Below, in pieces: positions 20,625-37,762 of a stretch of 64,000 bases of DNA; positions within the stretch are counted from its first letter, which is position 1, and every line of letters starts with the position of its first letter. A model generated the notes under the pieces. It had not been told where the DNA came from. It saw only the letters and a program-made list of their open reading frames with translations, and ran no database searches. Position numbers and translations under genes: made by a program. Origin of the DNA: a virus (taxonomy: Duplodnaviria; Caudoviricetes); IMG/VR virus record IMGVR_UViG_3300034061_004620; one strand, given 5' to 3'.

Positions 20625-21245
20625 ATGAAAAGTCTCCACGATTATATAGCAGAACGAAACTCAAACTACAGTTTTAGGATCAAGGTAGCAAAACAAAACC
20701 CCAAAGATATCATGGAAGAAATCAAGAACGCTCTTGATGCTTACGAACTTGTAGATATCACCACACCAAAAAGTATGCCGGTACAAGAGCATAGAGAATT
20801 TCCCAAGTGGGGTGCATGCGAATGTTGGCAATTTGAAGCCACAGTGGCATATCCTACTACTACAGTACAAATCGCACAATTACTTAAAGAACGCACAGGC
20901 ATGCAGGCCGAGTGGGTTTGTGTGTACGGCAAACAACAAGCAGATCAAAACGATTATGCCGAAGCTTATGGCAAGGATCACGAAGGCGCACTATTGTTAG
21001 ACGGAGAACTCAAAGACGTACCCGGTGGGCAAGATCTTGTGGCAGAAAAGCGCAAAGACAGCTTATTAAAAGAACTTGATAAGAAGAGTCCATTACTAAC
21101 AGGCCCTGGCGAACCAGACTTAGTGACTACCCACGCAAAAGAAAGAACCAAGCCAGCACAAACAACTAATGCACTTCCGCAAGGTACTAAGAGTCCTGTA
21201 GGTAGCCAACAAAACAAATTACCCCCAATTAAAGGAAGAAAATAA
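20625..21245 (+). CDS. Putative internal head protein with CTS-like leader MKSLHDYIAE
   Basis: Start moved from 20529 to ATG 20625 (SD and late promoter); the leader resembles T4 IPII/IPIII MKTYQEFIAE. Confidence 0.6.
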   Translation: MKSLHDYIAERNSNYSFRIKVAKQNPKDIMEEIKNALDAYELVDITTPKSMPVQEHREFPKWGACECWQFEATVAYPTTTVQIAQLLKERTGMQAEWVCVYGKQQADQNDYAEAYGKDHEGALLLDGELKDVPGGQDLVAEKRKDSLLKELDKKSPLLTGPGEPDLVTTHAKERTKPAQTTNALPQGTKSPVGSQQNKLPPIKGRK

Positions 21246-22222
21246 TGAGCAACAATATCTATGACATCTTGAAAAAGATGCAACGCCTTGAGTCACCCAA
21301 GCAGGTTCTTGCAGAAGGTAAAAAAGCAAAACCTGATTTTGCAGACCTTGACAAGGATGGTGACAAAAAAGAGCCTATGAAAAAAGCTGCCAAAGAAAAA
21401 AACAAAGGCGCAATCGCAGAAGCAGTTGCTCGAGTTGAAAAGAATTTAGCAGAAAAGTACATGAGCTACAAGAAACGACTGGGCGAAGAGTCTGACATGA
21501 TTAGAAAAGTTATTCCGGTCAATGTCATTGATGGCCCTGGCGGTTACGAAGAAGCACAAAAGCGTATTAAAGATCATGAATCATCAAAAGTAAAGAGACA
21601 AGAAATGCCAGGTAAAGAGTTACCTCCAGTAGACGATAGATCTCGACCAGCCGACAAGCCCAAGACTAAAGAAGTAGATGAAAGTGGCTTACAAGCGTAT
21701 CTTGGCAAAAAGAAGTATGGCAAAGAAGGTATGCAGGCATTACAGAAAGCAGGCCGCGAAGGTGCAAGTAAAGAAAAAATGGCCAGCATTCGTGCCCGTC
21801 ATGACAAGATGGATGAAGACGCATACAATGAAGACATGCTGAGTCCTAAGCAACAAAAAATTGCTCGTATGGCCGGGGATCCTAAAAAAATTGACGCCAA
21901 CGATCTAAAAGCTTTGCGAGCCGGTAAGAACAAAAAAGCCGAAGGCAATGCTTTTAGTGGCGCTTTAGATGCAGCAAGAGACGCTGGCAAATCTGAATTT
22001 GAAGTCGACGGAAAAAGCTATAAAGTAAAAGAAGGCTGGGACGAAATGCTAAAAGCACAAAAAGAACGTAGCGGTCCACAACCCAGTGGCGGATCAGGCA
22101 TTAAGCAAGGCAAACGTTATGGTGGCGGCGCACAAACCGACGAACCAGACACAGATAACGAAACAGGTGAAGTAGCTAAAAAAGGCCGCGGTCGCCCTAA
22201 AAAAGATAAATTTGCAAAATGA
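21245..22222 (+). CDS. Putative internal head / prohead-core polyprotein-like protein (DxDxDG motif, C-terminal AT-hook)
   Basis: Lys-rich modules separated by LAE/IAE/VDE/MDE/VKE; KPDFADLDKDGDKKE; KKGRGRPKK. Confidence 0.55.
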   Translation: MSNNIYDILKKMQRLESPKQVLAEGKKAKPDFADLDKDGDKKEPMKKAAKEKNKGAIAEAVARVEKNLAEKYMSYKKRLGEESDMIRKVIPVNVIDGPGGYEEAQKRIKDHESSKVKRQEMPGKELPPVDDRSRPADKPKTKEVDESGLQAYLGKKKYGKEGMQALQKAGREGASKEKMASIRARHDKMDEDAYNEDMLSPKQQKIARMAGDPKKIDANDLKALRAGKNKKAEGNAFSGALDAARDAGKSEFEVDGKSYKVKEGWDEMLKAQKERSGPQPSGGSGIKQGKRYGGGAQTDEPDTDNETGEVAKKGRGRPKKDKFAK

Positions 22223-25200
22223 AAATTCGTGAAATAGCCAAACAGTCTTCATTACAAGAAGGTGCAATATCTAACAAAGTGTTACCTGGTTTGAGTTTTG
22301 CTGACGCTGGTATCAGAGTGGCTGAAAAAGATTATCCCGGTGCCGCCATTGCTGGCACAGCAGCTGGGCTAAGTCTAATACCAACAATACCCACACAAGC
22401 TGCCAGTATTGGTTTAGAGGCATTTAATCAATTACGCGACGAAGCTGCGCGACGCGGTGGTTGGGGAAATCTTGGCAGAGATATGATGAAGTCTGTCAGG
22501 GATGGTGATTTTGATCATATCCATATGCTACCAGAAGAATTTGACAAATTAGATCAATTAGAACGAGCAGGCAAACTTGACGAAGGTGGTTTAACAAGTA
22601 TTCCAGGCTGGATAGCCAAATACGGTGATGATGCTGTTCGGTGGTTAAAAACTGTCGGAAGACGCGATAAACCAGATGCTCCTGCTTCTAAGCCAGAAGT
22701 ACCAGATGCCTCGGTACCTTCTAAGAAGCCATACACCAGAGACGAAGATTTGCCTATTGTGGGGCGAGATACACCTACTCCACCACCGGCCTCAACTCCT
22801 GTAGAATTACCAAAACAAAAACGATTTGAATCAGACAAAGCATATTTAGACAGATTACAAAAAATGGGTCCTGAGTTTGTGCAAAAGAAAACACAAATGG
22901 ATCAAGCTCTGATTAGTGCTAATCAAGCAAAAGAGTTAAGTAAAGGACCAGTTAGAAAAGGATTAGAAACAACTGGAAAATTCTTAGTAAGGAACCCAAT
23001 AACATGGGGTGCAGGGGCATACGGAGGATACGAAGCAGCTAAAGAATACGGACCAGATATAGGACGAAAATCGATTGAATGGTGGCGACAAGGTCCTGAA
23101 AAAGAAATTCTCCAAAAAGCTCCTGAAGGCGAATTGCTGTCAGACATTATAAAAGGTGTAACAGCACAACCTCCAGCCAATGCACCGGCTCCGGTGACAC
23201 CAGAAAAACAGCAAGAACTCCCACCGCATATAGATCCTGCCACCGGCAAAACAAGGGACCAAGGCGCCAGACTTGATGACAAAGAAAAAACATTGACTGA
23301 GAAATATCAACAGTTTCTCAATGACGATAAAAAGCCGCAATACACCAAGGAACAGTTTATTCAATTGGCTGCAAAATATGCCAAGCAGTATGATGTTCCA
23401 TTGCCTGTAGTCTTACATGCCATGCGTAAGGAAACTGGTGCGTATGATGCAAACACCGCAGCCACAGTTCTTGGACCCAAAACCAAATATGGACAAGCAG
23501 TTGGTGTCATGCAGTTGATGCCATCATTCTTTAAAACATTAAAACCTGAAGATCTAACAAATCCAGATCGAAACATTGAAGCTGGTACAAAATTTTTAGC
23601 AAACTTGTACAAGACATACGGCAGTGCCGAAGCAGCCCTGGCAGCATACAACGCCGGACCATATAATAAAAAATTTAAGGCTTGGCTTAAATCCAATGAT
23701 CCAAAAGATTTACCGGCACAGACCAGAGAATATCTCTACGGCGATCCACGAAAGAAAACTGTTGGCTATGTTGATGATGTAGCACAACAAGTTGCGCTAT
23801 TGAATCCACCGAGCACCAGAGATAAAGTTGTAAAGGTAGCTACAGACGTATTGGCTGCTGCCACAGGATCAGGCGACGCACAAGCAGCAAACAGCAAAAA
23901 ATCTAAAGCTGAAGTCATCAGCGGCCCTCAATATCCACCTCACGGTACACCAATAGAGAAAGTACAACTACCTGGTCATTGGACCAATCCTGTATTGAAA
24001 CCTTTAGATGGTAGAGTACACATGCAGTTGCAAGATTTAAGTGGCGAGTTTAAAGCGGCCTTAGATAAAGCCATGGCCGATTATGCCAAAGACAATCCAG
24101 GAGTTACAATTACTGTAACCAGCGGAGTGAGAACTCCCGAAGATCAAAAGGCTTTGGCCAAGCGAGCAGCAATAGAATATGAAAAAATGAAAAGGGGAGA
24201 GCCGAACAATTATATACCTGCCTCAAAAGAATTAGCCGGACATGCAGGATATGCCATTGACATGAACACTCCTGATCTGGTAAAATTTTCCAAATGGTTG
24301 CGAAAAAACGATCCATATGACAAAAAAAATCCAAGCAACACAAAATACGGATTGCAAGACGGATTCGAAATAGCAGACCGTGTGCATTTACAATTGAGAG
24401 GCTACGAGCAATTAGATTCAGAAAAGGCCAGAAGAGCATACAATAAAAACTTGCCTATAGATAAACAAATTCTAACTGCCTCTGATTGGGAATCGTATGT
24501 ACAACGCACAGAAGCCGAAAAACTGGCTTTAGCGCAGCCTAAAGACAAGAAACTAACCGATCCCGGACTTGGTGGTGCTCCAGAAGCCCAGGCTGATACA
24601 ACATCAAAAGCAGATAACAGTAAACCTCTCAAATTTCCTTCTATTAGATCAGATATACCATCCGTTGATTACCAGTCTCAAGGTGATGACACACCGGCTA
24701 AATCAGCTGAAAAGAAAGCAGAAAAGCCAGCTGATAAACCTGCCGACAAAGACAAATCTAAAGCAAAAACTCGCGTTACAACAGATGCAACGGGAAGAGA
24801 AACAACATATACTCAAAATGAAAAAGGCCAATGGGTCGATCCTCGAGGCAATATTATGCCCGCACCCGAAAAACCAGGATCAAGAAAAGATCTTGATATC
24901 ACTGACAAAGGCGGAGACCCCAGTGCAGCAGATTTAGAAAAATCAAGAAACATAACCGGTCGTAAAGATCCTCTCATCGATCCTGACACTGGTTTTCCTA
25001 CCACAGAAAAAGCCTTACGCGACAAACTTACTCAGCGTGCCGCCGACGAAAAGGCAGCAGCAGAACGAGAAGCCAAGCGTATTGCTGACTTAGAAAAAAT
25101 TCAACGAGATGCAGAAGCCAGGAAAAAGGCCGAAAAACCAGCCGACAAAGAAGCAGGTAAAGCAGATGCAGGCACAGGTCTTGCTGGCACAGACACAGGC

Positions 25201-26040
25201 AAAGACAAAGGTAAAGCAGATAAACAACAACGTGTGCCAGCTGCACCTGCTGCTGAAGTTCCTGCTGCAGACGCAAAAGATAAGTCTGCTAAAATAAATG
25301 TACGTAAAGAATTTGAAAAGGCCTTTGCAGCAGCAAGAGCCGCACAGGCGTTAAAGACCGGAAAAGGCAGTGGAGGAACATTCACATGGACAGATCCACG
25401 AACTGGTAAAGAAAGTACATATACTACAGACTACGGTGATGAGGTCAAAGATAAAAAGTCAGTAAAGGTGGTACCTAAAGCTGAACCTAAAGCCGAACCA
25501 AAAGCCGATGCTGGTGCTGACACATACTGGGTAGATCCAAGACTATCAAAAGTGCCATACGATGTTATACGCAAGCAGATTAAACCTGATTATACAGTGG
25601 ATGCAGATCCGGATGCAATAAAAGTTCCACGAGCTACAGAACCTGATACAGATACAAAATTGCCATCACAGACACGTAGTGTGAGCGAGCCAGACCGTGC
25701 CAATGTATTACGTTCCACAGACGGCACCCCAGTTACATCAGGCACAGGCGAACCGTGGGGTACCGGCACCAGTACCAAGAAAGATATAGAACGTGCCAAG
25801 GATGAATTGCAGAAAAAAATTGATGATGAAAAATTCAAAAAAGAATTGCAAAAAATTAGTCCTGATTTGTCAGAACCCGAACAAGGTAATAGATGGATTG
25901 ACAAATGGAATCAAGGCATAGAAGCACTAACTGGTAAAGAAAGAATGACACCCGATGACATGAACAGGATACGTGTTCCAGAATCGGTAAATACAGAACT
26001 GAATGACATATTATGGTTGGCTGGAAGGGTAAAAAGATAA
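22219..26040 (+). CDS. Large virion protein with SLT lytic transglycosylase and M15-type peptidase domains
   Basis: SLT ~23341-23790 (MRKET..AVGVMQLMP..NIEAGTKFL..ALAAYNAGP); M15 ~24020-24410 (VTSGVRTPEDQ..AGHAGYAIDM..DRVHLQL). Confidence 0.75.
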   Translation: MKIREIAKQSSLQEGAISNKVLPGLSFADAGIRVAEKDYPGAAIAGTAAGLSLIPTIPTQAASIGLEAFNQLRDEAARRGGWGNLGRDMMKSVRDGDFDHIHMLPEEFDKLDQLERAGKLDEGGLTSIPGWIAKYGDDAVRWLKTVGRRDKPDAPASKPEVPDASVPSKKPYTRDEDLPIVGRDTPTPPPASTPVELPKQKRFESDKAYLDRLQKMGPEFVQKKTQMDQALISANQAKELSKGPVRKGLETTGKFLVRNPITWGAGAYGGYEAAKEYGPDIGRKSIEWWRQGPEKEILQKAPEGELLSDIIKGVTAQPPANAPAPVTPEKQQELPPHIDPATGKTRDQGARLDDKEKTLTEKYQQFLNDDKKPQYTKEQFIQLAAKYAKQYDVPLPVVLHAMRKETGAYDANTAATVLGPKTKYGQAVGVMQLMPSFFKTLKPEDLTNPDRNIEAGTKFLANLYKTYGSAEAALAAYNAGPYNKKFKAWLKSNDPKDLPAQTREYLYGDPRKKTVGYVDDVAQQVALLNPPSTRDKVVKVATDVLAAATGSGDAQAANSKKSKAEVISGPQYPPHGTPIEKVQLPGHWTNPVLKPLDGRVHMQLQDLSGEFKAALDKAMADYAKDNPGVTITVTSGVRTPEDQKALAKRAAIEYEKMKRGEPNNYIPASKELAGHAGYAIDMNTPDLVKFSKWLRKNDPYDKKNPSNTKYGLQDGFEIADRVHLQLRGYEQLDSEKARRAYNKNLPIDKQILTASDWESYVQRTEAEKLALAQPKDKKLTDPGLGGAPEAQADTTSKADNSKPLKFPSIRSDIPSVDYQSQGDDTPAKSAEKKAEKPADKPADKDKSKAKTRVTTDATGRETTYTQNEKGQWVDPRGNIMPAPEKPGSRKDLDITDKGGDPSAADLEKSRNITGRKDPLIDPDTGFPTTEKALRDKLTQRAADEKAAAEREAKRIADLEKIQRDAEARKKAEKPADKEAGKADAGTGLAGTDTGKDKGKADKQQRVPAAPAAEVPAADAKDKSAKINVRKEFEKAFAAARAAQALKTGKGSGGTFTWTDPRTGKESTYTTDYGDEVKDKKSVKVVPKAEPKAEPKADAGADTYWVDPRLSKVPYDVIRKQIKPDYTVDADPDAIKVPRATEPDTDTKLPSQTRSVSEPDRANVLRSTDGTPVTSGTGEPWGTGTSTKKDIERAKDELQKKIDDEKFKKELQKISPDLSEPEQGNRWIDKWNQGIEALTGKERMTPDDMNRIRVPESVNTELNDILWLAGRVKR
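25988..25993 (+). promoter_or_regulatory. Possible late promoter TAAATA inside the end of the SLT/M15 gene
   Basis: GGTAAATAC, 48 nt before ATG 26042. Confidence 0.4.
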
Positions 26041-26041
26041 A

Positions 26042-29000
26042 ATGAACATGCGAGAACTAATAAATCTAATAGAGGCACCGGCTCCTAAACAAGGTGTTAC
26101 TGGACAAAAACTTGCTCAAACAAGTGGCGGCCAATTTATGAATCGAGCCGATAGAACCAATCAAGCCAAAGTTGATGCAGCGTTAGGCCCAGGATTCAAA
26201 GCAGGAAGTGCAGCAGCCAATCAGGCATTAGCTAAAAAATTCAGTCAGCCACAAGCTGTACCGGCAGCAAACACAGCAAGTGCTCAACAATCAGCAGCAT
26301 TAGACACTTCCAAGGCAAATGCAATTGGTGGGCAACAGGCAGCAACCACGGCAGCAGCACCAGAACCAGACACAAGAGGTGCAGCAGCGATGGCAAGTAG
26401 ATCGGCCCCGGCCGCTGCAAATACAGAGCCAGTTCAAGCAGCAGCTCCTGCTCAAACTTCAGATCAGATTGCAACCGCTGCACTAAATGCACAAGATTCA
26501 ACACCACAAGCTGACACAAGAGGTGCAGCAGCAATGGCCAGTAGATCAACAAGTACTCCTGCTCAAACTTCAGATCAGATTGCAACCGCTGCACTAAATG
26601 CACAAGATTCAACACCACAAGCTGACACAAGAGGTGCAGCAGCAATGGCCAGTAGATCAACAAGTACTCCTGCTCAAACAACTCCGGATCAAATACCAAC
26701 TCAAACAGCAACAGCTCAAAGTATAGGTGCTACTAATTTGCAAGGCGAAAATCCAGCAGCACCAGCACAACAAAATACAGCAGCACCTGCTCAAGCAGGC
26801 GGATATGCTCAGAGTGCCACTGCCGCCACCAATAATCCTGCACCCAAGAGTGACTATCAGCCTGTAGCTGGAAGTTCTAATTTAGTCTCAAGAACCTCCG
26901 ATAAAATTGCAGCAGACGCAAAAGCTGGGCCTGGTGGGCAAAATCCTGCAACAAAAAGTTATGCCAGTTTTGGTGATTTTGCCAGTGCTGTAGGAAACAA
27001 AGTTAAAGGTTTTTTTGGTGGCAATCAACCAGCACCAGACGCAACTGCAGGTACTGGTCCTAATTTAGGTACAGGAACATTAGGCAGCACACCAAATGCA
27101 CAACAGCCGCCTGCATTTGTGCCGTCAGCTACAACAGCCGGCACCCCAGCTGCGTTTGGTAAAGTTGCCGAAGCTGATGCGCCAGTGAATTCCGCACCTC
27201 AGCAGCCGGCAGCAAAAACTCAAAAAGCACCAAGCATGTACGATGTTGACAAGGCCAACAGAAAAGAAATAGCAAGTCAATTTGACCCTAATTCAACTTA
27301 TGTAAATCCCCATGACAAAGATACACGAGCGTCTGCTCCAGGATCAAAGGCAGTAAACACCATGGCTGACTTTGAAGAAGATGTTGATCATGCATTGGCA
27401 GAGATGATGCGCTTGAGTGGTTTAACTTTGAGTGAAAAAGCACCACCAGGCAAGAAGGCCGAACGCATGGTTAAACACATTAAAAAAGGTTATGCCAAGG
27501 ACGGTAAACTCACAGACAAAGAAAAGTCAATTGCATTTGCAACTGCATGGAAACAGCACAACAAAGAAAAGGTAAACGAAGGCATGGACATTATGTTAGA
27601 CGAAGATGGGCATACACTAAAACATATCGTTAATAGATTCAAACATGAAACTAAAAATTTCATGAATACAGGATTTATGGCAGAGAACTTGTATGATGCA
27701 TTATATGATTATTATCTGGATAGAGGCGACATGCCTTACGGTATTGCCAAGGCAAGAGAAGGTGATCCATACGAGTGGGTAGAAGAACACTTCTATGCAG
27801 ACATGGGCAGTCAAATGAGTGAAGGTGCTGTAGCAGAACAAACTGTGGACCCACTGAGTGAATTAGCACGTTTGGCTGGATTGTCAGAAGACGGTCCTGG
27901 ATCTGCTATGCTAAATGCCCCAAAGAAAGACACTGATTCATTTGCAGACAGAATGAGAAGTGCAGGAAAAGAAATTAGGCGTACGATTGATCGCGCAACA
28001 TTGCCAGCTGCAATGAGAGCAGATTATGATAGAATTGAAGCAGAAAAAGAAAGAGCCTCAGCTCCTGTAGCAACACCAGCAGTCGCTAAAGCTGATGCAT
28101 TTAAAGATGCAATGGGTTCTGGATCCAACAAAGCACAAGCAGATGACAAATTGAAAGAAATGGGCGACAGTCCATTGGCAAGACTCAATCAAATGCCACA
28201 AACTAAAGGACAAGAACCAAGTTCGGGTGCAGCGAGCTCGTTCGCACCACGTGAGCGCGAGCGTGTGGTTAGCCCCAAGATTGACAAATACGAAAAAGAC
28301 AAAGAACGTGCAGAAAAAGCCAGAAGAGATATTGTTGATAGAGAAAGTCCAGATGCTAATACATTTGGTCGTAAAATAGGCAAAGCAGTATCAGAACCAG
28401 TTGCAGCAATCAAGAGTGCATGGCACGGTGCAACAGATGCCTGGGATCATACTATGGGCAATGATACAGCCCCAGATCCAAAACCACCAGTTAGTGTTGT
28501 TAACAAAAGAGACTGGAAAGGTGACAAGGATAATCCTGCACTAAAAGAAAATGACGAGTTAAATCGTATGCGTAAAATTGCCGGACTACAGGAATGTGGA
28601 GATATGGGCATGGAACGCGATCATATGCAACAAAAAGATCGATTGAATGTTACCACAAACATGAGCAGTGATGGTACCAAGGACGTCACTATCAATGCAC
28701 AAGGTGACGCCGCAGAAGATCTACTGTCTATGTTGAAACTGGCAGGTATGGAAAGACATCATCAGCCTACAATGGTCATGATTGACCGCGATGAAGAAAT
28801 GATGGAACGAGAAGAAACTCCTGTACCTGATGATGGTAATGTATTAGGTGGTATGGGAGATTTTGAACAAATAGATGCAATAGACGAAGCCAAGAAGAAG
28901 CGTATTACACGTCATAGCAACACACCCGACGAAGAATATCAAACCGTAGATAGTATTCTACGTCAAGGCAATGATCTCAACAGAGAAAAACGCCAGTACA

Positions 29001-29575
29001 AGAAAGAATACCCCGGCGACAATCCAATGTCTGAAAGCATGCTTGATCAAGACTTAAACGACATCCTTGAGAGCATCTTGATTCGCGAAGAACCTATTCC
29101 AACTACTACAGATCCTGAGACAGGACGAGTAAAAGCAACATTACCCTCAAATTTTTTCCGTCCTGGTAAAAAACGTGATCGTGCCAGTCAAGAGATACCA
29201 ATGGAACCTGAATCGCCAGAATCTCGTGTAACTGGGCCACGCAGTATGAAAATACCTGGTGAGCGAACAGGTACAGAAAACTTTGGTAAAGACAAAGAAG
29301 TTGACGAAGGTTGGGAAGATGTAAAAACAGGTGTATCTAACTTTGTTGGAGATCTTTTTAACACAGACGACAGTATACGCAGAAGAAGCGGGCAGTTTCG
29401 TGATCTTGAAGCTATGCAACAAAAGTATAAACCTGGAACTCCAGAGTATGATCAATTGGAAATGCGTAAGACCAAGCAAAAAGAAAGGTATTACGGAGAC
29501 CAAGGTGAAGTGGTAGGTAAAGACGGCGAACCAATTAAAGTATTACCACCTGATCAATGGAAAGGTGGCAAGTGA
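26042..29575 (+). CDS. Large low-complexity putative internal head protein (leader MNMRELINLIE, four LxxLAG-type helices)
   Basis: 1177 aa, Ala/Gln/Pro-rich N-terminal half, many (L/V/M/I)xE sites. Confidence 0.55.
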   Translation: MNMRELINLIEAPAPKQGVTGQKLAQTSGGQFMNRADRTNQAKVDAALGPGFKAGSAAANQALAKKFSQPQAVPAANTASAQQSAALDTSKANAIGGQQAATTAAAPEPDTRGAAAMASRSAPAAANTEPVQAAAPAQTSDQIATAALNAQDSTPQADTRGAAAMASRSTSTPAQTSDQIATAALNAQDSTPQADTRGAAAMASRSTSTPAQTTPDQIPTQTATAQSIGATNLQGENPAAPAQQNTAAPAQAGGYAQSATAATNNPAPKSDYQPVAGSSNLVSRTSDKIAADAKAGPGGQNPATKSYASFGDFASAVGNKVKGFFGGNQPAPDATAGTGPNLGTGTLGSTPNAQQPPAFVPSATTAGTPAAFGKVAEADAPVNSAPQQPAAKTQKAPSMYDVDKANRKEIASQFDPNSTYVNPHDKDTRASAPGSKAVNTMADFEEDVDHALAEMMRLSGLTLSEKAPPGKKAERMVKHIKKGYAKDGKLTDKEKSIAFATAWKQHNKEKVNEGMDIMLDEDGHTLKHIVNRFKHETKNFMNTGFMAENLYDALYDYYLDRGDMPYGIAKAREGDPYEWVEEHFYADMGSQMSEGAVAEQTVDPLSELARLAGLSEDGPGSAMLNAPKKDTDSFADRMRSAGKEIRRTIDRATLPAAMRADYDRIEAEKERASAPVATPAVAKADAFKDAMGSGSNKAQADDKLKEMGDSPLARLNQMPQTKGQEPSSGAASSFAPRERERVVSPKIDKYEKDKERAEKARRDIVDRESPDANTFGRKIGKAVSEPVAAIKSAWHGATDAWDHTMGNDTAPDPKPPVSVVNKRDWKGDKDNPALKENDELNRMRKIAGLQECGDMGMERDHMQQKDRLNVTTNMSSDGTKDVTINAQGDAAEDLLSMLKLAGMERHHQPTMVMIDRDEEMMEREETPVPDDGNVLGGMGDFEQIDAIDEAKKKRITRHSNTPDEEYQTVDSILRQGNDLNREKRQYKKEYPGDNPMSESMLDQDLNDILESILIREEPIPTTTDPETGRVKATLPSNFFRPGKKRDRASQEIPMEPESPESRVTGPRSMKIPGERTGTENFGKDKEVDEGWEDVKTGVSNFVGDLFNTDDSIRRRSGQFRDLEAMQQKYKPGTPEYDQLEMRKTKQKERYYGDQGEVVGKDGEPIKVLPPDQWKGGK
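26445..26679 (+). repeat. Exact in-frame tandem repeat, 111 bp x ~2.1 (37-aa unit)
   Basis: Unit starts CTCCTGCTCAAAC at 26445, 26556 and 26667; encodes PAQTSDQIATAALNAQDSTPQADTRGAAAMASRSTST. Confidence 0.95.
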
Positions 29576-30633
29576 TGAAAACGTTTCGCGAATATCTCAA
29601 CGAAGCAGAACTGACAGAAGGAAATCCTGCTGTTGGGGATATTTTTGAGTTAGAAATAGCCAGAGACGAAACTTTGCTCGAAACTTATATTGTTGATGTG
29701 TTTGAGGATGGAATAGTATTAGAAGCAGACGACACCATGATGAGAATTTTAACGCATGTTGGATATATAACAGAAGATTCAAACATGCCCACTGCTCGAG
29801 ATTCTATCAGTCCAATACATTCAAATGTGAACAGAGACAAAAGCTCCGATGACGACCTCATGGACAAAGACTCAGGTGCCACACCACCTGCTCGTCCTAC
29901 ACGCGATGCGGTAGACACTAAGCCGCTAACCGAGCCAAAAAACAAAAAAGATCCCAAAGACTACATGGTGCATGAGGCGCCCGAAGGATGGGGACAAGAT
30001 ACCATGACCAACAAAGACGGTTCGGTGATGAAATACAACCCCGATGATGACAGTTACAGCATGGTATCTCCTCCTACGGTAAAGCCTACTAAAACGTCAA
30101 TGTCGGTGATTGATACTCATAGATCACAAGATCGCAGCTCGTCTAAAGGAGATAGTACACACAAGCAGGAATTTACATCTGCTTCGTTTGCAAGAGATCC
30201 CAAAACTGGCGCAGGCGATTATTACATATCTCGATCAACAGATGATGATTACGACGATGACTTTCAGCAAGATGTAAGTGCCCCTTGGATGAACTATACG
30301 CAAGCCAAAGCAAAATATGATTCAGATCTTATGTTTGGTAAAAAAACAGCCATGCCTCAAGGGCCAATGAGTCAGTTCAGAGCACCAACCAATGAAGCCA
30401 AATATCAAGGTCGTGAAGTTCCGTTAGGCAAGAAGATGAAGGGCGATGTTAAGAAGAGTAAAGTGTATGTAAGAGGACCCAAAGGTAATGTAGTTAAAGT
30501 GAACTTTGGCGATCCTAACATGACAATCAAAAAGTCAAATCCAGCCCGTCGTAAAAGTTTCAGAGCAAGACACAATTGCGCCAATCCAGGACCAAGATGG
30601 AAAGCAAGGTACTGGTCATGTAGGAGTTGGTAA
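29575..30633 (+). CDS. Putative internal head protein (leader MKTFREYLNE) with a basic C-terminal RRKSFRARHNC..ARYWSC domain
   Basis: Start placed at ATG 29575 overlapping the upstream TGA; strongest CTS-like leader in the window. Confidence 0.65.
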   Translation: MKTFREYLNEAELTEGNPAVGDIFELEIARDETLLETYIVDVFEDGIVLEADDTMMRILTHVGYITEDSNMPTARDSISPIHSNVNRDKSSDDDLMDKDSGATPPARPTRDAVDTKPLTEPKNKKDPKDYMVHEAPEGWGQDTMTNKDGSVMKYNPDDDSYSMVSPPTVKPTKTSMSVIDTHRSQDRSSSKGDSTHKQEFTSASFARDPKTGAGDYYISRSTDDDYDDDFQQDVSAPWMNYTQAKAKYDSDLMFGKKTAMPQGPMSQFRAPTNEAKYQGREVPLGKKMKGDVKKSKVYVRGPKGNVVKVNFGDPNMTIKKSNPARRKSFRARHNCANPGPRWKARYWSCRSW

Positions 30634-31418
30634 TGACAGATCCAAGATTTTTTAGACAGTATTTAGAGATATTAAAAGAAGGCCCTCCTGCAGGTGTTGG
30701 TCCTAATGCACCTATAAAACAACCTGTGCAGCAGCCAGCTAATACCAGTCAAGAACCAAGCCAATTTCAACAGGCCAAGGATGCAGTAGGGCAACAATAT
30801 CAAAATTACAAAGATATATCGGGACAACTTGATCAAGGTGTACAACAAGGATTAATCAGCAAAGATGTGGCCGATAAAACAAGAAGTTATGCACAAGGTT
30901 CAATGTTAAGAGGTGGTTGGGAGGCAGGTAAAGCAGCAATGCAAGGTCGTGATCCATCATCGGCCTATGTAGGTAGCTTGATTAGATCAATGGGTAATTT
31001 GGCTGCTGATTCTGGTCTTGATGATGCTGCAAAAAAACTTGGACAATTTGCAAGTCAGTATCGAGGTCCTAATGCCAAAGATATAACAAAAGATCCCGCA
31101 TACCTAAAAGCATCACCGGAACAACAAGCACAAGCCCGTAAAGATTTTGAAGCAATTAAATCATTGCCTGATGATGAATACAATTATATTTTTGGTGGCA
31201 ATGCGTTTAAGGAACGTGGCGCACAGGCAGCTCAAGTTGGTCAAGACATGATTGATCAAAAAGATTGGGGTACAGGTCGTAGCGCAGGGTTTTCACCAAA
31301 AGCAAATGAACTTTTTGGATTAGATCCAACTCGTCAGGCAACTGATGCAGAAATGCAAGCGGCAGCAACAGGTACCAACGAAGAATTAGATAGACTCAAA
31401 CAACTTATTAGAAGATAA
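30633..31418 (+). CDS. Putative internal head protein (leader MTDPRFFRQYLEILKE)
   Basis: TAATG coupling; Q/G/A-rich; ends EELDRLKQLIRR. Confidence 0.55.
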   Translation: MTDPRFFRQYLEILKEGPPAGVGPNAPIKQPVQQPANTSQEPSQFQQAKDAVGQQYQNYKDISGQLDQGVQQGLISKDVADKTRSYAQGSMLRGGWEAGKAAMQGRDPSSAYVGSLIRSMGNLAADSGLDDAAKKLGQFASQYRGPNAKDITKDPAYLKASPEQQAQARKDFEAIKSLPDDEYNYIFGGNAFKERGAQAAQVGQDMIDQKDWGTGRSAGFSPKANELFGLDPTRQATDAEMQAAATGTNEELDRLKQLIRR

Positions 31419-31873
31419 TGAGCGATCCAAGATTTTTTAGACGATACTTAGATATTCTTGACGAACAACCTGTCACTGCAAACATTGATGACTACACAAG
31501 CGTGACTGTTGATCCTACAGCAAAAAATCTTGCAATGCAAACCAAGATTGGGGACTTGGATCTCAAAGCAACGCATGACCGTTCCGCAATCCCGGCCAAT
31601 CAAATTTCAGCCAATTACCAAGTGGACCCTAAATTAAAGGTTGGCGGCACACACACTCAAGCAGGATATAAAGGACAAATGACTCCTACCACTCAAATTT
31701 CAGCCAACTACGACGATCCTGATGTTGGTAAAGCTGATCTACAAGTAGATAAAGGTGCCATGTTCCAGGGTGCAGGAAAAAATATTCAGCAAGGAAATCC
31801 CGCTATCGTAACTGCCAAATTTACAAACCCACAAGGCCAAACAGCCACTTACAATACAAACAGAAACTTATAA
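31418..31873 (+). CDS. Putative internal head protein (leader MSDPRFFRRYLDILDE), beta-strand-rich body
   Basis: Leader nearly identical to that of the preceding gene; internal repeat TQISANYQVDP / TQISANYDDP. Confidence 0.55.
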   Translation: MSDPRFFRRYLDILDEQPVTANIDDYTSVTVDPTAKNLAMQTKIGDLDLKATHDRSAIPANQISANYQVDPKLKVGGTHTQAGYKGQMTPTTQISANYDDPDVGKADLQVDKGAMFQGAGKNIQQGNPAIVTAKFTNPQGQTATYNTNRNL

Positions 31874-31882
31874 GGAAAATCA

Positions 31883-32317
31883 ATGAAAAAATTATTAGCA
31901 ATTCTATTATTAGCACCTACTCTTGCACTTGCTCAAAAACAACCACAAGGTGTTATGTATGATGCACAAATTGTGAGAGTAAACGATGGCGACACAGTAG
32001 TCATTGCTGCTCCATTCTTGCCAGCTCCACTCAAGCCCGAGTTGGCTGTGCGTGTTTATGGAGTGGATACTCCTGAAAAAGGCCATAGAGCCATGTGTCC
32101 AAGCGAAGCACAAAGAGGTGAAGCAGCCACAGCGTTTACAAAAAATGCAGTGGCCAAATCAGTCAAGCGTCAGGTAGTGCTTTACGGTTGGGACAAGTTT
32201 GGTGGGCGAGTATTAGGCGACATGATTCTTGATGGACAAAGCTTGCGAGCTCAACTTATTGCCAATGGATACGCAAGAGAGTATTATGGTGAAGCCAAAC
32301 AGTCATGGTGTAACTAA
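31883..32317 (+). CDS. Staphylococcal-nuclease (thermonuclease) family protein with Sec signal peptide
   Basis: VNDGDTV, VRVYGVDTPE, DKFGGRVLG, LIANGYAR; N-terminal MKKLLAILLLAPTLALA; SD AAGGA. Confidence 0.9.
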   Translation: MKKLLAILLLAPTLALAQKQPQGVMYDAQIVRVNDGDTVVIAAPFLPAPLKPELAVRVYGVDTPEKGHRAMCPSEAQRGEAATAFTKNAVAKSVKRQVVLYGWDKFGGRVLGDMILDGQSLRAQLIANGYAREYYGEAKQSWCN

Positions 32318-32372
32318 AGGACCAGACACACCTGATGACGATCGTCCGGTTGTGCCTTACAGTGATCATTAA

Positions 32373-32540
32373 ATGAAATGGATTTTTGTTCTAATGGTGT
32401 TAGTGGTTGATGATGGAGTATGGAGAGCATGGAACAGTTATCCTACTTTAGCAGAATGCGACGAAGTTATACAAGTGATAACTCATCATAGAGAAGAAAA
32501 AATTAAAGCCTATTGTTTGGCCAGGCAAGTAGATGAATGA
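32373..32540 (+). CDS. Small hypothetical protein (55 aa, hydrophobic N-terminus, two Cys), missing from the ORF track
   Basis: MKWIFVLMVLVVDDGVWRAWNSYPTLAECDEVIQVITHHREEKIKAYCLARQVDE; overlaps the next start. Confidence 0.55.
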   Translation: MKWIFVLMVLVVDDGVWRAWNSYPTLAECDEVIQVITHHREEKIKAYCLARQVDE

Positions 32541-32742
32541 TATTGAACAATTACGAGTATTAGCTGGTATTAGTAACCGTGCAGTGATGCAGGAGTACAA
32601 AGGCTTTCCGGGTAGTAATATCTCTGTTACCGGAAATGAAAAAGGCGAACTCATGAAAAAACATGACATTCGCCCCGGTACTGATGCTTGGTTTAAACTT
32701 TGGTTCAGCAAGCCATATTTAACTGGTGAACGGCCAATATGA
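32533..32742 (+). CDS. Small conserved phage protein with N-terminal EQLRVLAGI motif
   Basis: 69 aa; K.ELMKKHDIRPGTDAWFKLWFSKPYLTGE. Confidence 0.65.
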   Translation: MNDIEQLRVLAGISNRAVMQEYKGFPGSNISVTGNEKGELMKKHDIRPGTDAWFKLWFSKPYLTGERPI

Positions 32743-33689
32743 GAGTCTTAGTTGATCAACTTTATGCTCATGTTGTTCCGTCAAATTTAACATACGATTT
32801 TTTAGATCAAAAGATAGATATTGATTCTTTAAATTATCAAAGTAATAAAGTAAACATAGTTGATCTATCACAGAATTGTCTTACTGAACTTGATAAACAA
32901 GCTTATCATAAGTTTTTGCAAACTTCCGATTCAGTAATAATTTTACATCCTGACCCAAGAATACACGACGAGTCAGTAATTTATTATCCGTTCTGGCAAA
33001 TTTATGGAATGCGTGAATGGGAAAGAAATAATTTCACTTATTCAAGAAATTGTATAATGAGTTGTCTTAACGGGAATCCGCACGAACATCGGTGGTATAT
33101 TTACAGAAATTTAATAAAAATGGATTACAATGATGTTATGTATTCATTTCATAATAATTCTCATTACGATTTAAATTATACCAATTGCGGATCAGAACTA
33201 TCTCATTATTTCCAACAAGAAAAACATAGTTTTCCGGAACGATCCAGTAATGATTTATCAATATCTCACGACGCCTATAAAAAATCTTTTGTAAATCTTG
33301 TTACAGAAACATCAATTGAGGACAACTTGTTTATAAGTGAAAAAACATGGAAACCAATTGCAAGCGGCCAGTTCTTTATAATTGCAGGCCCAAAGGGAAT
33401 TATAAAATATTTACGCGAAACAGGAATAGATGTCTATGACGATATAGTTGATCACAGCTATGACACGATTGCAGATTGGAGAATTAGAATGGACGCGGTA
33501 CTCCAATCTGTTAATAAGTTAATCAATCAAGATCTAAATATGCTGTTTGCACAAACTTCGGCACGTAGAAAACAAAATGTTGAACATTTTTTTTCGGGTA
33601 GTATAGCACAACCCTATTTAGAAAAATTAGAAAAACTAATTAACTCTAAGCTGCCGCAGCATCTCTACCCAAATACTGATTCCATTTAG
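32739..33689 (+). CDS. Glycosyltransferase-like protein (GT10 fucosyltransferase-like C-terminal motif)
   Basis: FVNLVTETS..FISEKTWKPIASGQFFIIAG..DHSYD resembles the GT10 F.L..EN..Y.TEK motif. Confidence 0.45.
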   Translation: MRVLVDQLYAHVVPSNLTYDFLDQKIDIDSLNYQSNKVNIVDLSQNCLTELDKQAYHKFLQTSDSVIILHPDPRIHDESVIYYPFWQIYGMREWERNNFTYSRNCIMSCLNGNPHEHRWYIYRNLIKMDYNDVMYSFHNNSHYDLNYTNCGSELSHYFQQEKHSFPERSSNDLSISHDAYKKSFVNLVTETSIEDNLFISEKTWKPIASGQFFIIAGPKGIIKYLRETGIDVYDDIVDHSYDTIADWRIRMDAVLQSVNKLINQDLNMLFAQTSARRKQNVEHFFSGSIAQPYLEKLEKLINSKLPQHLYPNTDSI

Positions 33690-34176
33690 GATCTTTTACT
33701 CTAAATGGACTGTTTTTCCATGCCGCCGCTAATGCCCAATAATCCGGGCGATATGGTTTGCGAACAGGTTTCATAAAATTTTTGTCAGCTTTTTTAAAAT
33801 TACAGGCTTTGCAACTGGTTACACAATTGGTCCATTCAGTTTTGCCACCTTGACTTATAGGGGTAACGTGATCAATCGTAAGATCTTGGAAATCGAATGT
33901 ATCTTCACAATACTGGCACTGATAAAGGTCGCGTAGATACATGTTGTATCTTGTGAAGTTGACCTTGCGTTTAAAATTGAAATATTCGCGAGTGATAGCA
34001 ACACTGGGCACATTGATAGCAAGCTTTTCGCTCCTTATAATCCAGTCTGGGTATGTTTCAATCACCTGAATTCTACCCAGATACATGAGCTTGACAGCAT
34101 GTTGCCAGTGGATAACACTTAGCGGGAGTACACTAATTGGAGTGTAATCTTTATTCAAAAGTAAAGTATGTGACAT
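33646..34176 (-). CDS. HNH endonuclease (McrA/HNH_5-like)
   Basis: RDLYQCQYC..LTIDHVTP.SQGG.TEWTNCVTSCKACNFKK; start at MSHTLLLN (34176). Confidence 0.9.
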   Translation of the reverse strand: MSHTLLLNKDYTPISVLPLSVIHWQHAVKLMYLGRIQVIETYPDWIIRSEKLAINVPSVAITREYFNFKRKVNFTRYNMYLRDLYQCQYCEDTFDFQDLTIDHVTPISQGGKTEWTNCVTSCKACNFKKADKNFMKPVRKPYRPDYWALAAAWKNSPFRVKDPKWNQYLGRDAAAA

Positions 34177-34190
34177 AAGTAATTTATATG
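34174..34190. promoter_or_regulatory. Overlapping divergent late-type promoters between two start codons 11 bp apart
   Basis: Plus strand TAAGTA-6 nt-ATG (terL); minus strand TATAAATT-4 nt-ATG (HNH). Confidence 0.55.
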
Positions 34191-35756
34191 AAAACCAATG
34201 ATACAACTATTATAAAGAGTCCGTACCAAAAGGTCAACTTTTCTGAGGATCAAATTGTAGAGTTTATGCGATGTGCTGATCCTGAATCGGGACCAGAATA
34301 CTTTATGAGCAACTATTTCTACATTCAGCACCCGGTTCGGGGAAAAATGCTATATCAACCTTTTGAGTATCAACGGAAACTTATAGATACTTATCACAAT
34401 AATAGATTTAGCATCAGCCTGATGCCTCGACAAACCGGCAAAACCACAAGTGCCGCAGGATACTTGCTTTGGTTTGCTATGTTTAGACCAGATTCAACCA
34501 TATTAATTGCAGCACACAAGTATACCGGTGCCCAAGAAATCATGCAACGTGTTCGTTATGCCTACGAACTATGTCCAGACTGGATCAGGGCAGGTGTTAC
34601 CAGCTATAACAAAGGATCAATTGATTTTGAAAATGGAAGTCGCATTGTAAGCCAAACAACAACAGAGACTACCGGCCGAGGTATGAGTATTACCCTACTA
34701 TACTGTGACGAGTTTGCATTCGTTAGACCCACAATTGCCAAAGAGTTTTGGACTTCAATATCACCGACACTCAGCACTGGAGGTAAAGCAATTATTACCA
34801 GTACACCTAATAGTGATGAAGATCAATTTGCGTTTATATGGAAACAGGCAAATAAAACCATTGATGAGTTTGGAAATCCACGAACAGATGGCTTGGGCGT
34901 AAATGGATTTAAAGGATATCAGGCCAGCTGGTGGGAGCATCCAGATAGAGACCAACAATGGAAACAAGAAGAGATTGGTCGAATTGGGGAAGAACGTTTC
35001 AGACGCGAGCACGGGTGTGAGTTTTTGATCTATGACGAAACCTTGATTAACTCAATTAAACTGTCAGAACTGGTGAGTAAAGAGCCGCTTGAATTACAAG
35101 GACAAGTAAGGTGGTTTCAAAAACCGCAGAGAAACAAAACATATGTGATTGGACTTGATCCCAGTTTAGGAACAGGAGGCGACTATGCAGCAATTGAAGT
35201 TTTTGAATTGCCTACGATGGTACAAGTGGCCGAGTGGCAGCACAACAAGACACCTGTGCAAAGACAAATCGCTATTCTTAAAGAAATTTGTGAGTACATA
35301 TACGATACCGTTGGTACTACCAATGACATATACTATAGTGTAGAGAATAACACCTTAGGTGAAGCAGCCTTGGTAGTTATAGCAGAATTTGGCGAAGAAA
35401 ATATTAAAGGAACGTTTTTAAGCCAACCTATAAAAGCCGGGCAAGCAAGACTTCATAGAAAAGGATTTACAACTACAAATAAAACAAAATTAGCAGTATG
35501 CGCCAAATTGAAAAATTTAATTGAAAACAACAAAATGACACTAAACAGTAAAAATTTAATTAGCGAGCTAAAAACATTTGTAGCCAGTGGCGCAGGATTT
35601 GCAGCCAAAATTGGAGAAACGGACGATTTGGTATCAAGCACTTTATTGGTACTTAGAGTAATACAGGCTTTGCAAAGTTTTGATGCAGAGCTTGATGAAA
35701 AATTACGTGACAAAACTGATGACTACTTGGCACCAATGCCATTTATATTGGTATGA
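34188..35756 (+). CDS. gp17: Terminase large subunit, T4 gp17-like
   Basis: Walker A MPRQTGKTT, Walker B LLYCDEFAF, STPN, nuclease GLDPSLGTGGDY and TDDLV. Confidence 0.97.
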   Translation: MKTNDTTIIKSPYQKVNFSEDQIVEFMRCADPESGPEYFMSNYFYIQHPVRGKMLYQPFEYQRKLIDTYHNNRFSISLMPRQTGKTTSAAGYLLWFAMFRPDSTILIAAHKYTGAQEIMQRVRYAYELCPDWIRAGVTSYNKGSIDFENGSRIVSQTTTETTGRGMSITLLYCDEFAFVRPTIAKEFWTSISPTLSTGGKAIITSTPNSDEDQFAFIWKQANKTIDEFGNPRTDGLGVNGFKGYQASWWEHPDRDQQWKQEEIGRIGEERFRREHGCEFLIYDETLINSIKLSELVSKEPLELQGQVRWFQKPQRNKTYVIGLDPSLGTGGDYAAIEVFELPTMVQVAEWQHNKTPVQRQIAILKEICEYIYDTVGTTNDIYYSVENNTLGEAALVVIAEFGEENIKGTFLSQPIKAGQARLHRKGFTTTNKTKLAVCAKLKNLIENNKMTLNSKNLISELKTFVASGAGFAAKIGETDDLVSSTLLVLRVIQALQSFDAELDEKLRDKTDDYLAPMPFILV

Positions 35757-36304
35757 AAATAACTGCTGTCGATGACAAAAAAGATTTATTTCTTGTAGAA
35801 GATATCTTACCTGACAATATAATCGGCGCGATACAACAATTGGATCTTGATAGTTTGGATTGGGAATTACAATCTGGGCAAGAAGTATGGAAAAGAAAGA
35901 AGCTGATTCCGCCCGCGTCATGTGTTTTAAACGACGTAGATCCCTATTTAAATTCAGTGCGATTGCAAATAGCTGACACGATTGGAATAGAATTAGTAGA
36001 ATATGATTGTTGGAGCAGTTTCTGGTATGATACAGAAGGTTTTACCACAGATATTCATTTAGATGGTACTTTGCCAAATGCTATGCAGCTATATTTAAAA
36101 AACGGTCCTGAAAATTTTGGAACAGTATTTTATTACAATAATAGCGTGCCGTGGAAAGTAAGGTATAAATTTAAATACAAACCAAATACAGGGTATATAA
36201 TGTTAAACAATCCTGATCAATGGCATGCTGTGCCTGTGGTTCTGGCAGCAGGACAATCCAGGTTTAGCAGTTACACTTACTTTGGTAACTATAGCCATAA
36301 ATAA
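35753..36304 (+). CDS. 2OG-Fe(II) oxygenase
   Basis: HxD (IHLD), GTVFY, NTGYIM, distal H (WHAV), RxS (RFS). Confidence 0.8.
   Translation: MKITAVDDKKDLFLVEDILPDNIIGAIQQLDLDSLDWELQSGQEVWKRKKLIPPASCVLNDVDPYLNSVRLQIADTIGIELVEYDCWSSFWYDTEGFTTDIHLDGTLPNAMQLYLKNGPENFGTVFYYNNSVPWKVRYKFKYKPNTGYIMLNNPDQWHAVPVVLAAGQSRFSSYTYFGNYSHK
36298..36303 (+). promoter_or_regulatory. Late promoter TAAATA, near-leaderless
   Basis: 7 nt before ATG 36311, no SD. Confidence 0.65.
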
Positions 36305-36310
36305 TACATT

Positions 36311-37762
36311 ATGCGTGAATTAGATAAAATATCAGCTGCTTTATTTGACAAAATACGTGCTCGCTTTGATCATGTGAATATTGGCGACGAAAATGCCCAA
36401 AGAGTTACAGACCCAGAAAAAGCAAGATTTCTAAATTTTGATTACATCAGCGAAGATGGTGAGAATTTTGGTAATGTTACTATCAGTCTAATAGATGAAG
36501 ACAGTTTAAAAATCTACTTTGGCGCAAATATTACCGAAGCACTGGACGAAGAACAAGAAACAGAATGGTATAAATTTTTGCGTGGGCTCCGCGAGTTTGC
36601 AAGACGTAACATGTTGAATTTTGATGTTAGGGATATTAATCGTAGTAATTTAGATCTTAAAGACATTAAACAACAGAGTGTATCAGACGCCACTTACGAT
36701 AAAGAAGAATTGGCCATTGCCGAAGGAAGATTGTACGGACACGGCAATAACCGCAGAGTAAGTTTCGGTGATGTAGGCGAACACAAACTTATTATCAAGC
36801 ACAGAGATCAAATTGATCCAGAACGGCACGGTGCAAGAGCCAGACAAATAGAACATGTGTTCATCGAAACTCCAGTTGGAGAAAGATTCCTATTAGATCA
36901 TACCAATTTACATGGTGCCAGAGCTACAGCCAATCATTTACGCCACGGTGGTAACATTGGCGACGAAGGTAGTCAATTAATTAACGAAATGGTCAAAGAA
37001 ATGGCCAGCATGCGCCATTTTGTGCGTTCGATGAAAAATAGAACATTTGAAGATGCTGAAACTTCGGGCATGGTGGAAGCAGCCATTTATCGCTACAACG
37101 AAGTTAAAAATAATTTGAAACGTTTTCAAGGTCGAAAAGGCCATGAATTACTAATAGACATGTGTGATCGCCGTTACAATGACATGGACGAAACAGTGGA
37201 TGTAGACTCATTGCGCGAGCGTTTTGTGAAGAAAATTTACGATGATAGGTTCAACGAAGCACTACCATATGTTTATCGTGCATACAAAAACAAACAAAAA
37301 ATGGACACACCAATGACAGTGGAATTTGAGTCTTGGGCAAATGAAATTACTGAACAGACTTGGGATGAGGATAATGACGATAGAGATGAACAAGATTTAA
37401 CAGTGCTCATGCAAACTCCTATCGCAGTAGGTGTAGATGCATCAGATGGTATAGCTGCTATTTCTAACATCAATTTTTTACAAGACGATGAATTAAAACA
37501 AGCACTATTAAAATTGAGTCAGGTTCAAGGTCCAGATGCTGATGCAAGACGTACAATAGTTGGCTGGCTGGCTGCAAATGGAGAAACTGCATTAGCGAAC
37601 CAATTTATGCAAGTACTACAACAACAAAATACTAACACACAGCCAGCACCACAGCAACCGGTTCCACCACCTCAACCAGTAGGCGCAACCACAATGGATC
37701 AACCGGTAGTACAAGAAGATTTAGGATTTTTACGCAAGTTGGCAGGTTTGGTTAAAAAATAA
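36311..37762 (+). CDS. Conserved hypothetical late protein ending in VVQE-DLGFLRKLAGL
   Basis: 483 aa; late promoter; C-terminal LxxLAG motif shared with the putative head proteins. Confidence 0.65.
   Translation: MRELDKISAALFDKIRARFDHVNIGDENAQRVTDPEKARFLNFDYISEDGENFGNVTISLIDEDSLKIYFGANITEALDEEQETEWYKFLRGLREFARRNMLNFDVRDINRSNLDLKDIKQQSVSDATYDKEELAIAEGRLYGHGNNRRVSFGDVGEHKLIIKHRDQIDPERHGARARQIEHVFIETPVGERFLLDHTNLHGARATANHLRHGGNIGDEGSQLINEMVKEMASMRHFVRSMKNRTFEDAETSGMVEAAIYRYNEVKNNLKRFQGRKGHELLIDMCDRRYNDMDETVDVDSLRERFVKKIYDDRFNEALPYVYRAYKNKQKMDTPMTVEFESWANEITEQTWDEDNDDRDEQDLTVLMQTPIAVGVDASDGIAAISNINFLQDDELKQALLKLSQVQGPDADARRTIVGWLAANGETALANQFMQVLQQQNTNTQPAPQQPVPPPQPVGATTMDQPVVQEDLGFLRKLAGLVKK

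Follow-up and report, generated by a model that had tools for sequence, protein, structure and literature searches.

Introduction

The closest documented precedent for the element described here is found in phage 80alpha and SaPI1, where the 80alpha scaffold and the SaPI1 protein CpmB have a C-terminal RIIK motif in common and compete for a single capsid-protein site (PMC5644958). In phage T4, a short portable peptide, the capsid targeting sequence (CTS), takes the unrelated proteins IPI-III and Alt into the prohead (PMC3012670). Our subject is a short helical motif that recurs in unrelated genes of a 64,000-nucleotide stretch of DNA (the window) from the IMG/VR virus record IMGVR_UViG_3300034061_004620 (Duplodnaviria; Caudoviricetes), part of an uncultured T4-like jumbo phage, and that, judged by sequence, is the conserved C-terminal tail of the putative head scaffolding protein in a very large clade of jumbo phages. 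How giant phages choose the dozens of proteins that are packed into their heads is largely obscure outside T4 and the phiKZ group.

In herpesviruses (UL26/UL26.5) and phage lambda (C/Nu3), internal proteins use the C-terminal tail of the scaffold and are released by maturation cleavage beside it, and the scaffold C-termini of P22 and herpesviruses contact the capsid protein. The cargo-loading peptide of encapsulins, which is short, conserved, carried on a disordered linker and usually C-terminal, directs cargo inside an HK97-fold shell, and the CTS of T4 is removed by a gp21-type protease after Glu.

The present locus resembles 80alpha/SaPI1 in that a short motif from the scaffold C-terminus also stands on otherwise different proteins that, putatively here, enter the procapsid. 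It differs in sequence (L-A-G-h, where h is a hydrophobic residue, against RIIK) and in placement, copies being N-terminal, internal and C-terminal; moreover, CpmB is the size-determining scaffold of a satellite, whereas the copies here are on the phage's own putative cargo, with presumed binding. Like the T4 CTS, the motif is a short portable peptide, but it is not a MKTYQEFIAE-like N-terminal peptide of about ten residues: the CTS is strictly N-terminal with the consensus MKTYQEFIAE, and the motif, a match to the scaffold tail, stands mostly at C-termini or inside proteins. What it has of a scaffold tail is the extreme C-terminal location and the short helix, split by a flexible linker from an elongated helical body. 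Unlike the in-frame nested genes of UL26/UL26.5 and C/Nu3, the genes concerned are unrelated and carry independent short copies. With the encapsulin loading peptide it has in common a short conserved peptide on a disordered linker, but the consensus is another one, it belongs to a phage head that has a scaffold and a protease, and the receiving pocket is only putative. We place the finding among capsid-targeting or scaffold-mimic peptides; in searches of the literature, made with the motif strings and on jumbo-phage scaffold or cargo motifs, no description of the motif or of its sharing turned up.

Motif copies and their carriers

The motif, h-x-x-h-x-x-h-[A/S]-G-h, has seven copies in four proteins of the window: one at the C-terminus of 22219, four in 26042, one at the N-terminus of 32533 and one at the C-terminus of 36311. 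The proteins and copies are as follows (aa, amino acids).

22219..26040, plus strand: 22219 protein, 1273 aa, with an SLT transglycosylase domain at aa 383-487 (Pfam PF01464, E 1e-16)
25996..26028, plus strand: copy ELNDILWLAGR of 22219, aa 1260-1270 of 1273, followed by VKR and the stop codon
26042..29575, plus strand: 26042 protein, 1177 aa, largely low-complexity, with the CTS-like N-terminus MNMRELINLIE and four motif copies
27392..27424, plus strand: 26042 copy 1, ALAEMMRLSGL (AEMMRLSGL, aa 453-461), followed by T-L-S-E and then KA
27851..27883, plus strand: 26042 copy 2, PLSELARLAGL (ELARLAGL, aa 606-613), followed by S-E (L-S-E site)
28556..28588, plus strand: 26042 copy 3, ELNRMRKIAGL, aa 839-849, followed by Q-E and then C (L-Q-E site)
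28718..28750, plus strand: 26042 copy 4, DLLSMLKLAGM, aa 893-903, with no adjacent [LIVM]-x-E site
32533..32742, plus strand: 69-aa protein, motif at aa 3-13
32539-32571, plus strand: copy DIEQLRVLAGI (EQLRVLAGI, aa 5-13) of the 69-aa protein
36311..37762, plus strand: 483-aa virion protein, phrog_13484, homologous to PA5oct gp278 over its N-terminal two thirds (tblastn E 8e-25)
37718..37750, plus strand: copy DLGFLRKLAGL of the 483-aa protein, aa 470-480 of 483, preceded by V-Q-E and followed by VKK and the stop codon

The motif is an amphipathic helix of about 11 residues, in which positions -8, -5, -2 and +1 are hydrophobic, position -1 is Ala or Ser and position 0 is a capping Gly; it is usually preceded by an acidic residue, and the C-terminal copies are followed by 1-4 mostly basic residues. 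A strict pattern, [ED][LIMVQ]xx[LIMV]xx[LIMV][AS]G[LIMVR], matches five times in the called genes, against 0.10 expected from per-protein shuffles (0 of 300 shuffles reach five), and a single time in non-coding reading frames; the two looser copies beyond these five are both in the 1177-aa protein. Every copy of the window is kept in place across 44 related IMG/VR loci, whose orthologues are 57-100% identical over the 483-aa protein.

The strings listed in the initial annotation, namely the seven copies and EELDRLKQL, were all found where it had placed them, and its description of the carriers as unrelated agrees with our pairwise comparisons, in which similarity beyond the motif was not found. 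Its proposal that the cargo set reaches beyond the operon is likewise borne out, by the 69-aa and 483-aa proteins here and by a 100-aa protein in the related contig G001 (see below). The carriers number four, however, and not five as it had counted: EELDRLKQL, at the C-terminus of the 30627 protein (30627-31418), was rejected as a member, with a matrix score of -9.4 and no Ala-Gly. Also rejected were IYDILKKMQRL, at the N-terminus of the 21245 protein (score -1.8), and the LAGLIDADG homing endonucleases, which had been considered for the string LAGL; the carriers have no such Pfam match, and the motif occurs in disordered or terminal contexts.

The 22219 protein combines a T4-CTS-like N-terminus, MKIREIAKQSSLQE, with its C-terminal copy, which is conserved in loci L005, L009, L012, L019, L024, L031 and L038. 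In the 26042 family the four copies separate conserved modules and form islands of conservation amid otherwise hard-to-align sequence. The module after copy 1 varies among orthologues: directly after the copy and the L-x-E-K-A junction, the window (27425-27600) and the orthologues in L005-L039 have one of two unrelated modules, either PPGAKAERMVKHIKKGYAKDGK or the DUF3008-like SKQQQKFMGMVHAMQKGE, apparently after a module swap at the motif/cleavage junction.

A small protein of Atu_ph07 (AUZ94908, 113 aa) begins with the motif, MDIERLKILAGL, and its gene lies just upstream of the terminase gene; its likeness to the 69-aa protein of the window consists in the N-terminal motif and the position upstream of terminase. 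For the 483-aa protein, the homologous PA5oct gp278 is annotated with a mass-spectrometry note (electrospray ionisation tandem mass spectrometry, ESI-MS/MS). Among 25 orthologues, P465, V466, E469, L477 and G479 are the only invariant residues in the last 40 positions, and the AlphaFold2 model has a disordered Pro/Gln linker (aa 443-470) followed by a short helix (471-477) capped by A-G. A fold search with this model gave no match in PDB and only uncharacterised phage proteins in BFVD.

The putative scaffold tail

A scan of Pseudomonas phage PA5oct located the motif at the extreme C-terminus of gp330, which ends VEELRRLAGIK and whose gene is flanked by those of the head maturation protease and the major head protein. 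The 137-kb contig G001 comes from a close relative of the window phage, with 85% identity over the 483-aa protein; in it a homologous 368-aa protein, encoded between the PF03420 protease and capsid genes, ends NVFEIKRLAGLK. Depositors label this family (phrog_10922) as scaffolding protein in 121Q, 7t3, Munch, Serratia BF and MIJ3, and the phAPEC6 homologue has been named a putative scaffold (PMC7247149). The key point, which the initial annotation missed, is that the motif is a copy of this scaffold tail.

The tail is widely conserved. All ten phages inspected (G001, PA5oct, Atu_ph07, Phosso, Hallingskeid, fHe-Yen9-04, 121Q, RaK2, Vibrio 2.275.O and SCTP-2) have a scaffold tail of the form h-x-x-h-[A/S]-G-[I/L/M] followed by 1-4 mostly basic residues; the 120 close database homologues all end in KRLAGL or in KRLAGL plus one residue; and among full-length representatives with at most 50% mutual identity the motif tail is present in 93 of 123, with about ten more near variants. 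Along the family alignment, a nearly invariant L-x-E-S, about 33 residues before the C-terminus, is followed by a TGDR block, a variable linker and the conserved L-A-G. In the AlphaFold2 model of the scaffold (predicted local distance difference test, pLDDT, 82.5), a rod of long helices leads into a disordered stretch (321-354) and a terminal helix (355-364), the latter modelled at low confidence (pLDDT ~57-66). The 483-aa protein has the same end design, a disordered stretch and then a terminal helix. Co-variation between the Ala/Ser variants of scaffold and cargo within the same genome was not seen.

The annotations of scaffold homologues vary: Rad50 ATPase in Atu_ph07 and Phosso, tape-measure protein in SP27, outer capsid protein sigma-1 in fEgEco12, hypothetical in PA5oct and 'predicted DNA-binding protein' by JGI (records MF403008.1, PV764938.1, LC494302.1, PP777464.1 and NC_071039.1 gp330). 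These names are probably coiled-coil artefacts. A weak lead comes from the tail of T4 gp22, DIVSVYAKVASRF, which has the same hydrophobic spacing with Ser replacing Gly, and which we do not claim as a member.

Matching putative cargo copies to foreign scaffold tails

For an independent definition of the motif we built an ungapped position matrix from the scaffold tails of nine isolated phages, with the lake lineage excluded; a 13-column HMMER profile gave untidy local matches, and the matrix was used instead. Out of about 21,000 positions in the window proteome, all seven copies rank among the top eight. Eight positions reach at least 15 bits, against 0.46 expected (300 shuffles, maximum 3), and the one outsider, LVQFMRIVSGI in the gp15-like tail protein, looks like a chance match. 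The same matrix picks out in G001 the scaffold, the orthologues of the four carriers and the further 100-aa protein mentioned above, which has a CTS-like N-terminus and the copy ELMDMQRLAGI. No motif copy was found in the remaining head-module genes.

In PA5oct, scanned with a matrix from which its own scaffold had been left out, the four best matches are in gp249, gp281 (two copies, one at the very N-terminus) and the scaffold gp330; the matrix scan covered the first 165 of 287 kb, and the remainder was covered by the strict DNA pattern alone. The record has ESI-MS/MS notes for both gp249 and gp281. The PA5oct capsid protein (NC_071039.1 85850-87037) also contains, at aa 206, the motif-like string MLNRLRILAGP (18.4 bits); the lake-phage capsid protein does not conserve this string, which is probably due to chance.

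Over nine other complete jumbo genomes, a degenerate DNA pattern gave 19 matches, against 5 for a reversed control pattern. They include the scaffold tails of Atu_ph07, Phosso and Vibrio 2.275.O, the N-terminal copy in the small Atu_ph07 protein upstream of terminase, and the orthologous 121Q gp560, RaK2 ORF050 and fHe-Yen9-04 g205, all annotated as virion structural and each with one matrix copy of 14.9-21.7 bits.

L080:1551-2531, L081:1617-2531 and L082:1584-2561: virion structural proteins of 121Q, RaK2 and fHe-Yen9-04, very acidic

These three proteins have a GDNP[L/M] module in common with the 26042 protein (GDNPL in the three, GDNPM in 26042) and are probably its distant modular relatives. 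By eye, a second, unscored string of LAGQ type stands near their N-termini (LSRMLALAGQ in 121Q and fHe-Yen9-04, LARMMELAGQ in RaK2). The initial annotation had proposed scanning related phages for the motif, and such scans give copies in PA5oct, Atu_ph07 and RaK2-like phages and no convincing copy in T4.

Putative cleavage context and N-termini

For six of the seven copies a [LIVM]-x-E site lies within 10 residues, always on the side facing the body of the protein; the background chance of such a site per 10-residue window is 0.07-0.30 in these proteins. The sites are V-P-E five residues upstream of the 22219 copy, V-Q-E directly before the 36311 copy, L-S-E (twice) and L-Q-E after the first three 26042 copies, and M-Q-E, the sole site of the 69-aa protein, 9 residues after the Gly. 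They are conserved in orthologues, and scaffold tails are built to the same design, with V-F-E (G001) or L-K-E (121Q) directly before the helix.

T4-CTS-like N-termini ending in Glu were noticed in the window proteins 11817, 22219, 26042, 29557 (from Met7), 30627 and 31418. The N-termini of scaffolds resemble such peptides (MLLDAIKPLVDSGIINE in G001, L061; MLKEQLIAE in T4 gp22, L062). Because of this resemblance to the block proteins, the cargo may imitate both ends of the scaffold.

Interpretation and alternative explanations

What the analysis shows is a genuine motif that is conserved, specific in position and matched to the scaffold tail, that stands on disordered tethers and whose carriers in isolated relatives have virion-protein annotations. 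From this we infer docking, its receptor and cleavage. By a narrow preference, we read the carriers' helix as a cleavable tether that mimics the scaffold tail and docks cargo in the prohead, with the capsid protein as its most likely partner; by imitating the scaffold, the four carriers probably enter the head. The scaffold itself would be a rod-like coiled coil with a variable disordered linker and a terminal helix, and the cargo would bear copies of that tail, either terminally or at module boundaries. As the prohead assembles, the helix would dock at the site of the scaffold tail, most likely on the inner face of the major capsid protein, so that unrelated cargo would be enclosed by mimicry together with the scaffold. 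A T4-type prohead protease would then cut the [LIVM]-x-E sites beside the helix and free the body of the cargo from its anchor. The capsid protein is put forward as the most likely receptor because of the analogy with 80alpha/SaPI1 and other scaffolds; the tail helix of the scaffold model, being of low confidence, gives no sign of docking onto the scaffold body. The initial annotation had called the helix a docking 'zip code', and the match to the extreme C-terminus of the scaffold and the virion structural annotation of relatives' carriers, with mass-spectrometry notes in PA5oct, lend strong though indirect support to that idea, in which docking and targeting keep the standing of proposals.

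Several observations weigh against the scaffold-mimic reading. The evidence for docking, packaging and cleavage, in this phage and its relatives, consists of sequence and models, and the tail was read from the scaffolds of close relatives and not from the phage's own gene. The scaffold identity of the 368-aa protein is taken from gene position, the coiled-coil model and depositors' labels; it belongs to no Pfam family, and phrog_10922 carries no functional assignment. The Ala-Gly tail is missing from roughly one in four distant scaffold homologues, and in T4, where no convincing copy was found, the two strict-pattern matches do not resemble the motif and gp22 ends VYAKVASRF. No cleavage-type site adjoins copy 4 of the 26042 protein, and a T4 gp21-like specificity of the lineage's protease is assumed from its PF03420 membership. 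The PA5oct ESI-MS/MS set includes replication enzymes, so that detection is no proof of location in the head.

Among other accounts, the one nearest to scaffold mimicry keeps the tag and changes the receptor, the helix binding the scaffold core or the portal and the cargo co-polymerising with the core. T4 internal proteins are described as entering the scaffolding core via their targeting sequence (PMC3012670), the carriers here also have T4-CTS-like N-termini, and the multivalent 26042 protein could cross-link the core with its four copies. We consider this unlikely, given that the tail helix in the scaffold model (pLDDT ~57-66) shows no sign of docking on the scaffold body and that the scaffold C-terminus contacts the capsid protein in known systems (PMC5644958). 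An anchor would not be needed at all if the helix were a recognition element (exosite) of the prohead protease, which marks substrates and presents [LIVM]-x-E. Cleavage-type sites do adjoin six of the seven copies, scaffold and cargo are both expected to be protease substrates, and the scaffold has its nearly invariant L-x-E-S about 33 residues before the C-terminus. But the capsid protein is among the classical T4-type substrates and in this lineage keeps no conserved copy, 26042 copy 4 has no site, many [LIVM]-x-E sites in the carriers have no helix nearby, and terminal placement on long disordered tethers fits an anchor better, which together make the exosite quite improbable.

A role after ejection, for instance in self-assembly of ejected proteins or binding of a host target, is suggested by the kinds of carriers, which include an SLT cell-wall hydrolase and long disordered proteins of a sort known among ejection proteins. 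The best-conserved copy, however, is on the scaffold, a protein that is usually broken down or expelled ahead of DNA packaging, and the adjacent cleavage-type sites suggest that the helix is removed from mature cargo; we regard such a role as very improbable. Hardly credible, finally, is a product of chance or composition, that is, a generic Gly-capped amphipathic helix in Leu/Glu/Lys-rich proteins. The unrelated LVQFMRIVSGI of similar score and the motif-like string inside the PA5oct capsid protein speak for it, but both counts in the window far exceed expectation (5 vs 0.1 for the strict pattern, 8 vs 0.46 for the independent matrix), the copies hold their positions within otherwise divergent, disordered regions, and they recur in PA5oct, Atu_ph07 and RaK2-like phages.

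The scaffold-mimic reading can be taken further, to a bolder proposition that we consider possible though doubtful: the L-A-G tail would be a portable, position-independent loading peptide across RaK2/PA5oct/Atu_ph07-like jumbo phages, would bind a conserved inner pocket of the HK97-fold capsid used by the scaffold tail, and would suffice alone for foreign proteins. If true, cargo competes with scaffold for more than 1000 sites per head, in a phage counterpart of encapsulin cargo loading. A tag common to scaffold and cargo would permit sequence-based prediction of packaged, possibly injected, proteins in a clade with hundreds of 50%-identity scaffold clusters, and the proposed interaction is concrete and testable in the culturable phages PA5oct, 121Q and RaK2. 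The tag also points to a further handle, next to the T4 CTS, for getting foreign proteins into phage heads, and it corrects the annotation of a scaffold gene mislabelled as Rad50 ATPase, tape-measure, sigma-1 or DNA-binding protein in several records.

Neighbouring genes and minor observations

In the window, a gp15-like tail gene, a head-tail adaptor, a dNMP kinase, tail sheath and tail tube, and a head closure protein are followed by a block of low-complexity proteins, an SNase-like nuclease, the 69-aa protein, the large terminase, a 183-aa protein, the 483-aa protein and gp32. This order is common to PA5oct. The window does not include the genes for portal, protease, scaffold and capsid. 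The label 'late' for these genes follows from gene context only, because the canonical T4 late promoter box, TATAAATA, has zero matches across window positions 1-64000.

34188-35756: large terminase
31380..31415, plus strand: C-terminus of the 30627 protein, EELDRLKQLIRR, a conserved amphipathic helix with a basic end, not a motif member

The C-terminal helix of the 30627 family is conserved and ends in two basic residues (RR or KR). Prohead proteases, too, end in an amphipathic helix without Ala-Gly (G001 protease, L061:1363-2004, minus strand; PA5oct gp331; T4 gp21). The ends ITRLIKDLKLK (G001) and EIIKLISELKK (PA5oct) are both basic, as is ELDRLKQLIRR of the 30627 family, and T4 gp21 ends AEAMKKAL. 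The basic-ended helices of the proteases and the 30627 family may form a second class of C-terminal tail.

A weak local similarity links a 325-aa protein (21245-22222, aa 292-325) with aa 22-55 of the 69-aa protein (38% over 34 residues, pairwise E 0.001). The C-terminus of the 29557 protein (window 30400-30630) is a highly conserved basic, Cys-containing module, RRKSFRARHNC.NPGPR...ARYWSCR.W (phrog_7595), which in orthologues of the 29557 protein is joined to variable N-terminal parts.

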